Positions 25,606 through 29,781 of a stretch of DNA of 64,000 bases are shown in pieces. The notes under the pieces were generated by a model. It searched no databases. It had not been told where the DNA came from and was given only the letters and a program-made list of their open reading frames with translations. This DNA is from an uncultured Candidatus Saccharibacteria bacterium (GTDB lineage: Bacteria; Patescibacteriota; Saccharimonadia; Saccharimonadales; Saccharimonadaceae). Numbering within the stretch: the stretch's first letter is position 1; each line of letters starts with the position of its first letter. Location of the stretch: positions 48,593-112,592 of the forward strand of contig CAMZBA010000002.1 of NCBI GenBank assembly GCA_947304395.1, given 5' to 3'. The position numbers were made by a program, and so were the translations under genes.

Positions 25606-28600
25606 ATGTCAGACCAAGAATCCTACCAACAACCAAAGAAATCCTCGCAAAACGAGTGGAATACACTAGAGTTGCAGAAAGATACTGCGGCAGAGCTAAA
25701 GCAAAAAATTGCCACCGCCGCCCAGATAGAGATACCAGAGGGCGTCGCCGACAAAGAAGCCTATCGTCGCTCTGAAGACTATTATGCAGACATGTGCCAA
25801 TCGATTTTTGCGGCCGCATTCGATAATCCGCCCGAAGGCCTATCCGAAGACGACATCAAAACAGCCACTATCGACGTGCTTATCGACGAATCGCAAAAGT
25901 TTATCGCAGATGGCGGCAAGATGTCCGGCGATTTGGACGAGATATTATTCCCAGACCAAGACCTTACGGAAGAAGGATCTGCCATGTTAGCTCACTACGA
26001 AGACAGTTTGAAGGTTTTACGCGAAGCTAGACTAAAACAATACGCCAACGAATCGATGCGAGCTTTCCAAAACTTGGCTCAAAGGTTTGACGAAGCAAGA
26101 AAAAACGGAACCCAAATGCCAACTTTCCGCTTTTCGGAACCCCTAAGACGACTAAAACAGCTCAAGCAATACGATACCGATAACACTTCAGGTCTCGACT
26201 CAGTCTTCAATTACGTCCAAAAAAATATCATACCAAATTTCTACCCAAACCGAGCTGTGCCGATAAATGGTCGGCGTTCTCGACTACGAAGACACTCTTC
26301 GTTGAGAGATAGTTCCTATAGCCATTTGCGGATAAATCGCAGGTTTTATATGAACAAATTGCTCGATTTCGCCGAAGGAATGCCAGAACTCCTCGACGAC
26401 GCCCCCGAAAACGTACAAAGTTGTATAAGATTTTTGAACAACGCTAAAAACGAATTAAGCAATCAGGATTATAATTCAATTGAAAGAATTGCCGCACTAG
26501 GTCTCTATGGCAAAGGCGGCGAGGCAACGTTGTTTGACGAAAACGGCAAACCAACCGAAGAGTTCCAGATCGCCATCATGCTAGATTTTGCAACAACTGG
26601 CACTATTTCCCGCCGTAGTAACAGGCCCGACGTCCAAGATTTTATAAATAGCCGCAAAGGGCTGTGCGAAAAATATCTCAACGAAAAACAGCTGAAAGTT
26701 ATACAGGATCTGGCCGAGCAAAACTTAGAAAAACCACTTTGTGACGAAATTTTAGCCTCCTTATATCTCGAGAATGATCCCGCCATTTATGCCGCAAAGC
26801 TTAAGGCTGCCAATAAAATTAACAACGCGGACTATTTCAGCACTGATGCAATAGAGATATTGGCACAAATTAATACGCCGGAAGACGCCGATTTGCCAAT
26901 TGAAGAACTGAAAAAACGCGCCGAAAGCAAACTTTTTCACATAGGCTACCAGCGCGAGCACTTTCCAGACACAAAGCCATACGACAGGATGCATATCTAC
27001 AAAGCTTACGAAGAACTAATAAAGAGATTTGACAAGCAGACTATCAAAGGCCCAGACGGTTATTTCAACTACGACACTATCGGGATAAACAGACGGATTT
27101 TTGAACAGTATCTCCTGACGGCCATCGATGGTGAAAGAAAATTCCACCAGGATGACCTAGATGCATTCATTGGCCAGCTAGGAGCAATCGAGCAAATCTA
27201 CAACGACGCCAACATCGACGTAGTCAGACGCACGCAAATTCTCAGGCAAATTACACAAAGCAACGAGCCAATCAATAATAATTCCGCGCATAATACTGAA
27301 TGCCTATATAAAAACGCCAAGAACTTCCTAACCGCCTACAATAGAGAATACGACCCATTTGGAGACGACAGTGTTTTTACGACCTTTTTGGGCTTAGAAG
27401 AAACTGGTAAATATGAAATATCAGAAGAGTCCATCAATGGCATTGAAGACCTAATCAATCAAATAACCTATTCAAATTCAAACAGCCTCCAGCGTTTAAT
27501 GGCGCCAATCATCTCAGAGTTTCTGCGCAGCGGCAACTATAACATTGGCGAAGACGGCAAATTATCCTTCGATTACACTAGTGCCAAAGAGAAGCTCGAA
27601 AAAATCGAGACAATTTTCCTACGCAACAATCTCCCACCAGTGGCAAAGAATTTCTTAGTCTTCAAAACCATCCACCCAATGGACCAATTCAAACGTGACT
27701 TCGTTGAAGGCGCCGAATATAAATTATCACCAACCCTTGCGCAGGCAGAGGTACAAGGTCCATTTGGAAGTTACGGCATAATTTTGCGCAACCTCATCAA
27801 AAGTTCACTCGAGTCCAACGATATCACCATGCGCAAGTATCTCGAAAACATGCGTGATGGTCAAAAAATCTTGGACAACATCAAAAGTAACGAAACAACC
27901 TATGACGAACTAGACGAGGCATCGCAACAAACAATCTCAAACTTAATCAAACATATCGCCGCCCTCTACAACCAGACCGAGAGCGGGCAAGAAAACCCCG
28001 TCGATGCCAGCCTCGCACCAACCAAAGAAAACATCCAAACACTCGAGCAAACGCTCCGCGTCAGGGAGCGCGATACTATCGCAGACCGCGCCGTACGCTA
28101 TTTTGGCTTCACGGCTGGCCTACATGGCGTAGAAGACGCCTTGCGCAGGATGGACCAAAACAGGGAAGCTGCCGACCGGCGCAATCGCGAAACCGCCAAA
28201 CATCCACTGACTATCCACAGGGGCGACCTAATCAAAAACGTCAACGGCAAATACCTCGACAATATTCTAATGTATGGCTCAAACTCCAAGGAGTTCCTCG
28301 GCGAAGATGCCGACACTGACCAAACAGCCCTCGATACCGATGTTACGATGCGCCTAGGCGAAGATGCAGCTATCCAAGATTGTACCGAAATTCAGGACAA
28401 CCCCAATGGCAACTACGGCTATGTATGGTTTGTAATAGAAAACACGCCAGACAGATTTAGAACAACACGTCAAGACGATGGGCACCCCGGCGAAGTAGAA
28501 GATGTAAAGTTGTCAGACAACCGCCTAGAGCTATTCCAAACGGGCGTATTGGGCGAAAGTCACTACGGCATCGGCGTCGGCTTCGGTTCAGAACATATTA

Positions 28601-29781
28601 AGGCGATGGTAATCGAGCAGCCCGACGGTAAAAGCCTAGACGATGAAATAATCAAAAAAGGCGAATATCTCGACCGCACCTGTTTTAGAATTGTCAAAAA
28701 CGGCTTTTACATCCCAGTCTACGACAGAAAGACCGGCAAGCTATTATTCACCGAGGAACAATACGACAAAATGCGCGCACAGCTATCCGGCAACCCGGAA
28801 TATGAGACCGGCCCATATCGCGCCGCCAGCGCTGAAGATTTCAATAACGACATTGAGCGCATTACGCAGCTAGGCCTTGGCCAAGAAATCGATACTGTCG
28901 CCAACAAGGCAGAAGTCGACCGCAAAGACAAAGCTATTCGGGATGCCATTACCGCAAAGCTACTCGAAAGCGATCCGGGGTTACGCGACTATATTGACGG
29001 CGACGTTGTTCCGGGCGTAATCGAAGTCAGTAGCACTGGTTCCACTGGACGTGGCACCAATATTCCTGGCGACGGCGATTTTGATTATATCTTCCGCATC
29101 GATCGAGATATCTATGCCGATAGCGAAAGAATGAGCCAACTAGCGAATCGCATCAAGTCCGCTATCCACATGACCGCAGGCGTTAGTAAATCTCGCAGTG
29201 GCGGCATCTCCCCCTACGATATTCGTACCAAACACGTACACGTGGATGGACTAGAAGACGAAGTCGACATCGACATCACCTTCATTCAGCGTACCGACAA
29301 GATAACCTATGCCACTGAAAAAGCCGTCAGAGACTATCTGGACAACCTAGAGGGCGCCGAACGCGACCAAGCCATCAAAAACATCATTGCCGCCAAAAAG
29401 CTATTCAAGCAATACGAATGTTACAAGCCAAAACACGCTGGCGACAAGGATGAGGTTACCAACGAGACATTGGCACAAGGTGGCCTAGGCGGCATCGGCA
29501 CCGAGAACTGGATTCTTCAAAATGGCGGCTCGCTCACTGCCGCAGCACGCAGCTTCCTTCAGGCTGCCGGCCTATTAGACCAAAACGGCCAGCGTATCTC
29601 TGGCGCAGAACCGACCAGATTTACTGAATTTGTGAACAATTACCAAATCTGGGACCTTGGCGCCAATCATACTTCGGAAAGGAAGGGTAGATATCCGCAC
29701 GACAACTTCATCATCAATAATCTCGACGAAACCGGCTACCAAAAAATAACAAAAGCATTATTGGATTATCTTGGCGTATAA
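25606..29781 (+). CDS. giant protein (1,391 aa), no signal peptide, C-terminal pol-beta-fold nucleotidyltransferase (class I CCA-adding/PAP-like)
   Basis: ATG 25606 lies 1 nt after the upstream stop; the track start at 25549 overlaps that gene. The C-terminus has GSTGRGTNIPGDGDFDYIF, then EVDIDITF about 55 aa later, then KKLFKQYECYKP...GGLGGIGTENWIL. These are the three-carboxylate NTase signature and a neck motif like archaeal CCA-adding enzymes. Confidence 0.65.
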   Translation: MSDQESYQQPKKSSQNEWNTLELQKDTAAELKQKIATAAQIEIPEGVADKEAYRRSEDYYADMCQSIFAAAFDNPPEGLSEDDIKTATIDVLIDESQKFIADGGKMSGDLDEILFPDQDLTEEGSAMLAHYEDSLKVLREARLKQYANESMRAFQNLAQRFDEARKNGTQMPTFRFSEPLRRLKQLKQYDTDNTSGLDSVFNYVQKNIIPNFYPNRAVPINGRRSRLRRHSSLRDSSYSHLRINRRFYMNKLLDFAEGMPELLDDAPENVQSCIRFLNNAKNELSNQDYNSIERIAALGLYGKGGEATLFDENGKPTEEFQIAIMLDFATTGTISRRSNRPDVQDFINSRKGLCEKYLNEKQLKVIQDLAEQNLEKPLCDEILASLYLENDPAIYAAKLKAANKINNADYFSTDAIEILAQINTPEDADLPIEELKKRAESKLFHIGYQREHFPDTKPYDRMHIYKAYEELIKRFDKQTIKGPDGYFNYDTIGINRRIFEQYLLTAIDGERKFHQDDLDAFIGQLGAIEQIYNDANIDVVRRTQILRQITQSNEPINNNSAHNTECLYKNAKNFLTAYNREYDPFGDDSVFTTFLGLEETGKYEISEESINGIEDLINQITYSNSNSLQRLMAPIISEFLRSGNYNIGEDGKLSFDYTSAKEKLEKIETIFLRNNLPPVAKNFLVFKTIHPMDQFKRDFVEGAEYKLSPTLAQAEVQGPFGSYGIILRNLIKSSLESNDITMRKYLENMRDGQKILDNIKSNETTYDELDEASQQTISNLIKHIAALYNQTESGQENPVDASLAPTKENIQTLEQTLRVRERDTIADRAVRYFGFTAGLHGVEDALRRMDQNREAADRRNRETAKHPLTIHRGDLIKNVNGKYLDNILMYGSNSKEFLGEDADTDQTALDTDVTMRLGEDAAIQDCTEIQDNPNGNYGYVWFVIENTPDRFRTTRQDDGHPGEVEDVKLSDNRLELFQTGVLGESHYGIGVGFGSEHIKAMVIEQPDGKSLDDEIIKKGEYLDRTCFRIVKNGFYIPVYDRKTGKLLFTEEQYDKMRAQLSGNPEYETGPYRAASAEDFNNDIERITQLGLGQEIDTVANKAEVDRKDKAIRDAITAKLLESDPGLRDYIDGDVVPGVIEVSSTGSTGRGTNIPGDGDFDYIFRIDRDIYADSERMSQLANRIKSAIHMTAGVSKSRSGGISPYDIRTKHVHVDGLEDEVDIDITFIQRTDKITYATEKAVRDYLDNLEGAERDQAIKNIIAAKKLFKQYECYKPKHAGDKDEVTNETLAQGGLGGIGTENWILQNGGSLTAAARSFLQAAGLLDQNGQRISGAEPTRFTEFVNNYQIWDLGANHTSERKGRYPHDNFIINNLDETGYQKITKALLDYLGV

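Follow-up and report, generated by a model that had tools for sequence, protein, structure and literature searches.

We analyzed a 64,000-nucleotide stretch of DNA (the window; contig CAMZBA010000002.1) from an uncultured Candidatus Saccharibacteria bacterium and report here on one of its genes, which encodes a giant protein of 1,391 amino acids (aa) with a predicted nucleotidyltransferase (NTase) domain at its C terminus. The longest possible form of the open reading frame (ORF) spans positions 25549–29781 on the forward strand and encodes 1,410 aa without interruption. We chose position 25606 as the sensible start, because it lies 1 nt past the TAA stop codon of the upstream gene (25602–25604) and is common to the orthologues; translation from there yields the 1,391-aa protein. 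The next gene begins 18 nt past the stop codon of the giant gene and is preceded by an AAGGAG ribosome-binding site. A first-pass annotation of the window, made from the sequence alone, had described the ORF, its spacing of 1 and 18 nt to the flanking genes, and the lack of a signal peptide. Our coordinates uphold this, and we find neither a signal peptide nor a transmembrane segment in the 1,391-aa protein (the hydropathy maximum over 19 residues is 0.63). Internal repeats were looked for in the same protein, and none were found. The gene and its parts are as follows:

25606–29781, forward strand: giant-protein ORF, 1,391 aa plus stop, without signal peptide or transmembrane segment
25606–27405, forward strand: lineage-specific N-terminal region, aa 1–600, seen in close Saccharibacteria relatives only; highest ratio of nonsynonymous to synonymous substitution rates (dN/dS) in the gene, 0.13–0.21
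27406–28200, forward strand: start of the family-wide module, aa ∼601–865, all-helical in the model; motifs ETIFLRNNLP and YxLxDR(I/A)VR(M/Y)F
28201–28815, forward strand: conserved alpha/beta middle domain, aa 866–1070, possibly with an ADP-ribosyltransferase (ART)-like fold
28816–28980, forward strand: helical linker and long helix entering the NTase core, aa 1071–1125, as predicted by the model
28981–29355, forward strand: predicted Pol-beta NTase catalytic core, aa 1126–1250, with the G1145-S1146 loop, D1158-x-D1160 and the third carboxylate D1223 in VDIDITF
29356–29778, forward strand: helical second lobe, aa 1251–1391, with the invariant residues N1259, K1264 and Y1273-K1274 and the motif GGLGGxGxENWxLQ (29479–29517)

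The C-terminal nucleotidyltransferase domain

The C terminus of the giant protein contains the motifs GSTGRGT (aa 1145–1151, positions 29038–29058), DGDFD (aa 1156–1160, positions 29071–29085), VDIDITF (aa 1220–1226, positions 29263–29283) and YKP (aa 1273–1275), followed by GGLGGIGTENWIL (aa 1292–1304, positions 29479–29517). All of them had been quoted in the first-pass annotation, which had placed six residues between GSTGRGT and DGDFD; the spacer is in fact four residues long (NIPG) and, written as G-S-x11-D-x-D, fits the Pol-beta NTase signature. The GGLGGxGxENWxLQ helix is one that we take to resemble a neck motif.

An AlphaFold model of aa 1030–1391, built with an alignment of 37 relatives, has a predicted local distance difference test (pLDDT) score of 89.5 and a predicted template modeling score (pTM) of 0.90. 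When this model was compared with the PDB using Foldseek, all matches were bilobed template-independent nucleotidyltransferases (E values of the top matches are 1.7e-4 to 5e-3, probability ∼1.0), and the case of a C terminus devoid of an NTase fold, which had been considered at the outset, is thereby answered. The best matches are porcine OAS1 (PDB ID 4rwp, E value 1.7e-4) and the class I CCA-adding enzyme from A. fulgidus (E value 2e-4), and they are accompanied by E. coli CdnC, yeast poly(A) polymerase (PAP), CdnE enzymes, TUT7, Trf4, and trypanosome TUT4. Template modeling (TM) scores with the known NTases range from 0.35 to 0.43, which denotes a likeness at the level of the fold only. The C terminus had initially been likened to CCA-adding enzymes and PAPs. 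This holds for the fold, with the archaeal CCA enzyme and PAP among the best matches, but OAS1, CdnC, CdnE, and terminal uridylyltransferases (TUTases) match equally. Because OAS1, the bacterial cGAS/DncV-like nucleotidyltransferases (CD-NTases), and TUTases fit the fold as well as the archaeal enzyme does, an enzyme of this type is not unexpected in a bacterium, contrary to what had been supposed.

The features that define the Pol-beta NTase superfamily appear together in sequence and model, namely the pattern hG[GS]-x9–13-Dh[DE]h, a carboxylate on a later strand, and the alpha-beta-alpha-beta-alpha-beta core, and we judge the NTase signal to lie far beyond chance. In the model, D1158, D1160, and D1223 are placed for two Mg2+ ions, together with the G-S loop and a lobe that carries K1264, Y1273, and K1274. 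This helical second lobe would correspond to the neck, or the substrate-binding lobe, of PAP and oligoadenylate synthase (OAS) enzymes. Of 78 aligned family members, 74–75 have residues at the scored columns, and in all of these G1145, S1146, R1149, D1158, D1160, D1223, N1259, K1264, Y1273, K1274, and E1300 are invariant. The invariance of these catalytic and nucleoside triphosphate (NTP)-binding residues indicates a working active site, and aa 1126–1391 are predicted to form a complete, apparently active Pol-beta-type NTase.

Sequence profiles place the domain less closely. Pfam and NCBIfam scans of the protein returned no family at threshold. The SMODS profile scores 16.5–17.4 bits on the NTase, below its gathering cut-off of 26.5, and the PADLOC CD-NTase cyclase models reach E values of 0.002–0.013 over ∼50 residues; these weak matches, and one to NTP_transf_2, are located at the G-S/DxD region. 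PDB sequences compared with family profiles of the whole C terminus, the middle domain, and the NTase alone gave nothing meaningful, even at E ≤ 10. Kinship with the CCA/PAP families by sequence, as first suggested, is thus not borne out by Pfam, NCBIfam, or PDB sequences. A search with aa 1030–1391 returned 201 relatives, mostly 35–43% identical, and the few with a name are called hypothetical. We rejected a HEPN reading of the NTase lobe: a marginal HEPN_RiboL-PSP match occurs in 3 of 38 relatives and falls on the helical second lobe, and no Rx4–6H motif is conserved. RNRETAKH (aa 859–866) was likewise rejected as an Rx4–6H motif, its histidine not being conserved.

That the leading structural matches include the A. 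fulgidus CCA enzyme and yeast PAP would fit a housekeeping class I-type CCA-adding enzyme or PAP acting on the 3′ ends of tRNA or mRNA. The polypeptide, however, stops ∼90 aa past the neck-like motif, right after the helical lobe, which leaves no room for the tRNA-binding body and tail domains. No CCA or PAP sequence family is matched either, and ∼1,000 aa of unrelated sequence always precede the domain.

The conserved module and its family

Homology to other proteins begins at aa ∼600–660 and thus covers a C-terminal unit of ∼730 aa, in which a helical region, an alpha/beta domain, and the NTase follow one another; pairwise alignments with relatives of 550–616 aa run from aa 761/832 to 1389. 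The functional unit is therefore larger than the last ∼330 aa that had been proposed. Of the N-terminal ∼1,050 aa initially deemed unassignable, the part from ∼600/660 to 1050 is conserved in hundreds of relatives, whereas aa 1–600 are indeed lineage-specific. A jackhmmer search over the fetched loci found the first ∼600 aa only in close Saccharibacteria relatives, with aa ∼22–217 recognizable also in orthologues of 53% identity. Firmicutes members have another common N-terminal domain (MDYKYQRRQIFGKRLKVPK...).

A second model, comprising aa 655–1080 (pLDDT 90.3, pTM 0.89), contains ∼210 helical residues followed by the alpha/beta domain (aa ∼870–1060). The middle domain carries the motifs GDxIK, NGSxxKEFLG, SDxTPLDTD, YGxIWFVLK, LExF, HYGIRTGF, and NGFYIPV, and no or almost no variation is seen at D874, K877, G891, E896, D905, D910, D912, E975, G1033, Y1035, and P1037. 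The window clade differs at two near-invariant sites (N890 to Y and R990 to G), and the domain keeps a dN/dS of 0.06 despite these replacements. Foldseek matches in the PDB are weak (E values are 0.5–5, probability ≤0.25, TM ≤0.38); the list is headed by ExoA, cholix toxin, tankyrase, PARP14, and PARP12, with CteC and DarT lower down. In BFVD, we found a PARP-like iridovirus protein, a phage “PARP catalytic domain” protein, and a polyvalent-protein-associated domain (probability 0.6 for the PARP-like matches). The domain is thus possibly of an ART-like fold. K877, D910/D912, and E975 would lie on successive strands of the model, in the order of the R/H, S/Y, and E residues of ARTs. The H-Y-E and R-S-E triads themselves are absent from the domain, which has K877, D910-T-D912, and E975 instead, so that only the glutamate would correspond. 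When 22 segments of the middle domain were scanned against Pfam at E ≤ 10, only noise resulted and no ART family.

The giant protein belongs to a large unnamed family. An exhaustive HMMER search with aa 1–1098 as the query matched 684 representative clusters (50% identity), 352 of them with E < 1e-30. Cluster lengths are mostly 1,100–1,800 aa, with some of 2,500–6,114 aa, and matching starts at query residue ∼600–665. Matching ORFs from 79 genome loci usually encode 1,300–1,800 aa and have the module at their C terminus. No Pfam domain was found in six diverse full-length members, and among the giant members only one has a recognized domain, which is transglutaminase-like. The carriers are gut Saccharibacteria and metagenome-assembled genomes (MAGs) of Bacilli and Clostridia, with a patchy distribution; at least 403 stretches with the family were located among 185,579 species genomes. 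The gene is accessory, not universal. No family relative is present in the 50,697 phage records of INPHARED, the 72,556 plasmids of PLSDB, or the 2.9 million contigs of IMG/VR, and we rejected a phage or plasmid origin on these grounds.

Selection, neighbors and disrupted copies

The gene is intact in the window lineage and under purifying selection along its whole length. In this lineage, dN/dS is 0.06–0.08 in the module (0.06 in both enzymatic domains) and 0.13–0.21 in the first 600 aa. Four MAG contigs (Candidatus Saccharibacteria or Nanosyncoccaceae) encode proteins with 96–97% identical C termini and are collinear with positions 18972–30536 of the window at ∼90–93% nucleotide identity, which identifies the source of the window as a Saccharibacterium of the gut or rumen. 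The orthologues of 53% identity (loci L012 and L013) retain the tRNA-Thr/tRNA-Tyr synteny. The giant gene is flanked by two small membrane proteins:

25008–25604, forward strand: upstream 198-aa protein with a single transmembrane segment, paralogue of 8074–8598 and 11910–12404
29800–30498, forward strand: downstream 232-aa protein with a single transmembrane segment, kept at this position in ∼90%-identical genomes only

The first-pass annotation had assigned both proteins to one family of small membrane proteins. This is correct for the upstream protein, which matches 8074–8598 (E value 9e-25) and 11910–12404 (E value 5e-14). The downstream protein shares the topology of one transmembrane helix but no detectable family sequence (E value 0.02, over that helix only). 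In L012 and L013, a single-transmembrane protein is again tightly coupled upstream; its sequence is unrelated to that in the window, and homology between the window protein and its positional counterpart in L012 was not detectable. The bracketing membrane proteins recur only in ∼90%-identical genomes, and the Firmicutes relatives have no conserved neighbor at all. Clustering of 1,097 neighboring ORFs from 82 loci revealed no conserved operon partner. The commonest clusters (ABC transporters, recombinases, helix-turn-helix proteins, and histidine phosphatases) each occur in at most 16 of the 82 loci, and the other neighbors, among them PolA, PFOR, and an amidase, are ordinary genes.

Several features stand close to the gene. 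In the neighboring tRNA-Tyr gene, the CCA end is encoded. The 3′ end of that gene, with the CCA and a downstream hairpin-like stretch (24730–24835), is repeated ∼175 nt on, at 24909–25007, with 78–85% identity and just upstream of the pair formed by the membrane-protein gene and the giant gene; the duplicate may be an integration remnant or a local duplication. Between tRNA-Thr and tRNA-Tyr, a gene on the forward strand (22318–23745) encodes a 475-aa protein that matches the MATCAP/DUF1704 “QEGLA” metallopeptidase family (Pfam E value 1.5e-11). Directly downstream of the locus, positions 30537–31451 form an insertion/deletion polymorphism: the segment, which holds an ORF for a 225-aa leucine-rich-repeat-like protein (30668–31345), is absent from ∼90%-identical relatives, where the alignment leaps from ∼30536 to ∼31452.

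Elsewhere in the family, the gene has been disrupted repeatedly. The subfamily P0046, for which 323 blocks are indexed, travels as the chief cargo of a small mobilizable transposon alongside a large serine recombinase, a Mob_Pre relaxase, Bro-N, and TnpV. In the transposon copy (L001, 7970–8005), a +1 frameshift within YxLxDRIVRMF splits the gene, and this form is seen in hundreds of assemblies. In L087 (∼7893–7895), TGA replaces the conserved Trp of YGPIWFVLK, and in L088 (∼8001–8014), the frame changes ahead of the NTase. An alternative genetic code for the split gene of L087 was rejected, as the other long genes of that locus are intact under table 11. In L014, all that is left of the orthologue is a 272-aa protein (718–1536) in which the first ∼140 residues are joined to the last ∼190 (aa ∼140–1200 are deleted), and a divergent paralogue of 37% identity (2557–6101) lies just downstream, beyond the 232-aa membrane protein. 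The interruptions in Firmicutes are independent, and many of the “short” homologues in databases are such fragments.

These data also bear on the housekeeping CCA-adding enzyme or PAP considered above. The gene is patchy (at least 403 stretches in the 185,579 species genomes), it has been deleted, frameshifted, or truncated in several genomes, and the tRNA-Tyr next door already encodes its CCA end. With no tRNA-binding domains, no family match, a patchy distribution, repeated loss, and a tRNA-encoded CCA, this explanation, which the first-pass annotation had itself named as one that would undo its reading, is effectively excluded. Two-lobed Pol-beta NTases also include the aminoglycoside and lincosamide NTases, and the transposon carrying P0046 is presumably Tn4451-like, a type that often bears resistance genes. 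Both points could suggest a small-molecule (antibiotic-type) nucleotidyltransferase, or a silent scaffold whose NTase fold merely binds nucleotide. We consider either improbable: ANT or Lnu structures are not among the top 50 fold matches, a multi-domain build of 1,100–6,000 aa is unlike that of resistance enzymes, and strict conservation of all catalytic carboxylates speaks against a scaffold.

The giant protein could alternatively act as a single-polypeptide immune sensor akin to OAS and to the cyclic-oligonucleotide-based antiphage signaling system (CBASS), in which the N terminus would sense a phage or other foreign cue, the NTase would make a cyclic or linear oligonucleotide, and the K-D-E (ART-like) domain or an unlinked protein would respond. 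The best fold matches include CdnC, CdnE, and OAS1, and the sole profile matches credited to this reading are those to SMODS and the PADLOC CD-NTase cyclases. A variable N terminus joined to a conserved enzymatic C terminus is typical of many immune sensors, and the gene is patchy, at times cargo of a mobile element, and has been lost several times. The SMODS score of 16–17 bits is well under 26.5, however, the 82 loci have no conserved effector or regulator gene close by, the neighbors are housekeeping genes and form no defense island, and synteny and purifying selection extend over long distances in Saccharibacteria. We regard an immune sensor as unlikely, if worth keeping in mind.

Upstream of the locus, the window is rich in genes for surface proteins. 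Positions 6320–8077 and 9989–11908 (forward strand) encode paralogous secreted proteins, 37% identical, with a T4SS_pilin (VirB2-like) domain and Big_2 repeats, each directly followed by a single-transmembrane protein (8074–8598 and 11910–12404) from the family of the giant gene's upstream neighbor. An 818-aa secreted protein with Big_2 and a GH114 glycoside hydrolase domain (12485–14941, reverse strand) and a 1,510-aa secreted protein without recognizable domain (16361–20893, forward strand) belong to the same region.

A translocated effector, exported without a Sec signal (for example, by the monoderm-type type IV secretion system (T4SS) common to Patescibacteria and Firmicutes) and nucleotidylylating or ADP-ribosylating a target inside a neighboring cell or the host bacterium, would suit this setting, in particular the two VirB2-like proteins that are each followed by a paralogue of the translationally coupled membrane protein. 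Candidate phyla radiation (CPR) T4SSs are reported to be derived from monoderm conjugation machinery and to come with pilin arrays (doi 10.1101/2025.01.22.634366). The spread of the family over Saccharibacteria, Bacilli, Clostridia, and Tenericutes-labeled MAGs runs parallel to the one described there for the MPF-FATA class of CPR T4SSs. One subfamily travels on the Mob_Pre mobilizable transposon, and an immunity gene would be unnecessary if the producer has no target. Against an effector, neither the window nor most loci have a VirB4, VirD4, or relaxase gene near the giant gene, none of the 72,556 plasmids carries the family, the protein has no recognizable translocation signal, and its membrane-protein neighbors are not kept beyond close relatives. 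We rate this explanation as slightly less likely still than the immune sensor; an intracellular immune sensor and a translocated effector cannot be separated on the present evidence.

The remainder of the window contains a polysaccharide-synthesis cluster (32000–48000) with a sugar transferase, an Alg13/14-like pair, glycosyltransferases, and a flippase-like protein. Its GC content of 0.33–0.39, compared with 0.43–0.50 in the surrounding DNA, suggests horizontal acquisition. Candidates for conflict or toxin-antitoxin genes encode a 552-aa caspase-like Peptidase_C14 protein (43713–45371, reverse strand), a Zeta-toxin-type kinase fragment (47132–47506, forward strand), and a KAP-family P-loop NTPase (58204–59898, forward strand). 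Four or five tandem paralogues of 179–235 aa, all starting with MG(V/I)YF(G/D)V and two of them 81% identical, are encoded on the reverse strand at 52772–56466.

Interpretation and comparison with known systems

Our preferred reading, held with moderate confidence, is that the giant protein is an accessory protein of the conflict or host-interaction type, with a tail that transfers nucleoside monophosphates (NMPs), and not a housekeeping CCA enzyme. We favor such a role because the gene is stand-alone and patchy, is sometimes cargo of a transposon, has been disrupted repeatedly, and comes in giant multi-domain versions. The protein would be made in the cytoplasm, and the conserved ∼730-aa C-terminal module would be its business end. 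There, the NTase would take an NTP and move the NMP onto a hydroxyl, such as that of a terminal RNA residue or nucleotide or possibly of a protein side chain; alternatively, it may build a short oligonucleotide. The K-D-E middle domain, possibly ART-like and binding a nucleotide or NAD, would present or pre-modify the substrate of the NTase, and the variable N-terminal region would provide specificity for a partner or target.

Several observations weigh against this assignment. A stable physiological role would also agree with the long-kept synteny of the gene and the strong purifying selection on it in Saccharibacteria. The likeness of the NTase to known NTases is modest (TM 0.35–0.43), and no sequence profile ties the domain to any characterized enzyme. 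The ART-like view of the middle domain involves weak Foldseek matches (E values are 0.5–5) without the canonical H-Y-E or R-S-E residues, and N890Y and R990G suggest that this domain may act differently in the window clade. A secretion signal, an immunity gene, a defense-island context, and an effector partner were not found for the giant gene, and for this reason it is distribution and architecture that carry the label of conflict factor.

A more specific version of the preferred reading, which we regard as speculative and rather doubtful, would make the module a two-enzyme effector, in which an atypical ART-fold K-D-E domain and an OAS/CCA-like NTase together produce a new nucleotide-based modification or signal, for example by NAD- or ADP-ribose-primed nucleotidylation of protein or RNA. 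It would be deployed by gut symbionts with reduced genomes (Saccharibacteria and Mollicutes-like Bacilli) against host or neighboring cells, possibly via the monoderm-type T4SS that these symbionts share.

Whichever reading applies, animal-gut bacteria encode hundreds of distinct giant proteins without a Pfam, NCBIfam, or PDB sequence relative, and Saccharibacteria retain this 4.2-kb gene under purifying selection. Once identified, the substrate of the NTase could point to a nucleotide-based modification or signal of a new kind and could offer a first molecular handle on how bacteria with reduced genomes deal with hosts, phages, or neighbors.

We compared the giant protein with known systems. 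Polymorphic toxins combine a conserved N-terminal trafficking domain with a variable C-terminal toxin and an immunity gene. The giant family has the reverse order, with a variable N terminus and a conserved C terminus, and unlike in polymorphic toxins, the gene downstream of the giant gene is not conserved.

Polyvalent proteins (PMC5512222) are likewise giant and multi-domain and unite enzymes that modify proteins or nucleic acids, some with ART and Pol-beta NTase domains, and one subfamily of the giant family resides on a mobilizable transposon. The polyvalent-protein NTase has a minimal form with four strands, is akin to NTox45, and in most cases comes fused to ArdC-N (Iyer et al. 2017, PMC5512222). 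In contrast to polyvalent proteins, no MuF, ArdC-N, zincin metallopeptidase (MPTase), or LPD Pfam domain is found in the window protein, the six full-length members, or the giant members, and the phage, IMG/VR, and plasmid collections contain no relatives.

ARTs (ExoA, cholix toxin, the PARP catalytic domains, and DarT) provide the top weak PDB matches of the middle domain and recur in BFVD. Unlike in ARTs, H-Y-E or R-S-E is lacking, E values remain at 0.5–5 with TM ≤0.38, and no Pfam ART family is matched at E ≤ 10.

The NTase shares the head-and-neck arrangement of the A. fulgidus class I CCA enzyme (PDB IDs 1r89, 4x4u, and 3ouy), PAPs, and TUTases (TM 0.40–0.43), and the catalytic triad and the Lys and Tyr-Lys positions for NTP binding are similarly arranged in the model. 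The giant protein differs from class I CCA enzymes and PAPs in having no body and tail and no PAP RNA-binding domain, in showing no likeness to their sequence profiles, and in its accessory distribution.

CD-NTases of the SMODS type (CdnC, CdnE, and DncV-type enzymes) and OAS1 are, like the modeled domain, bilobed, with a G-S loop, a DxD motif plus a third Asp, and a helical second lobe; the structures matched by Foldseek are OAS1 (4rwp), CdnC (6p8v, 6p80, and 6u7b), and CdnE (7x4q). The giant family, however, scores below the SMODS threshold and has no CBASS operon partner (Cap effector gene) across the 82 loci, and its NTase, unlike those of CD-NTases and OAS, ends a protein of >1,000 aa, behind a second conserved domain.

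CD-NTases/OAS and the head-and-neck portion of class I CCA enzymes come closest in architecture, and membership in each of these families fails on at least one defining feature tested. The NTase represents a new family within the known Pol-beta superfamily. It adds a branch to the template-independent OAS/cGAS-like/CCA/PAP NTases, one in which the NTase is invariably preceded by another conserved domain that is probably catalytic.

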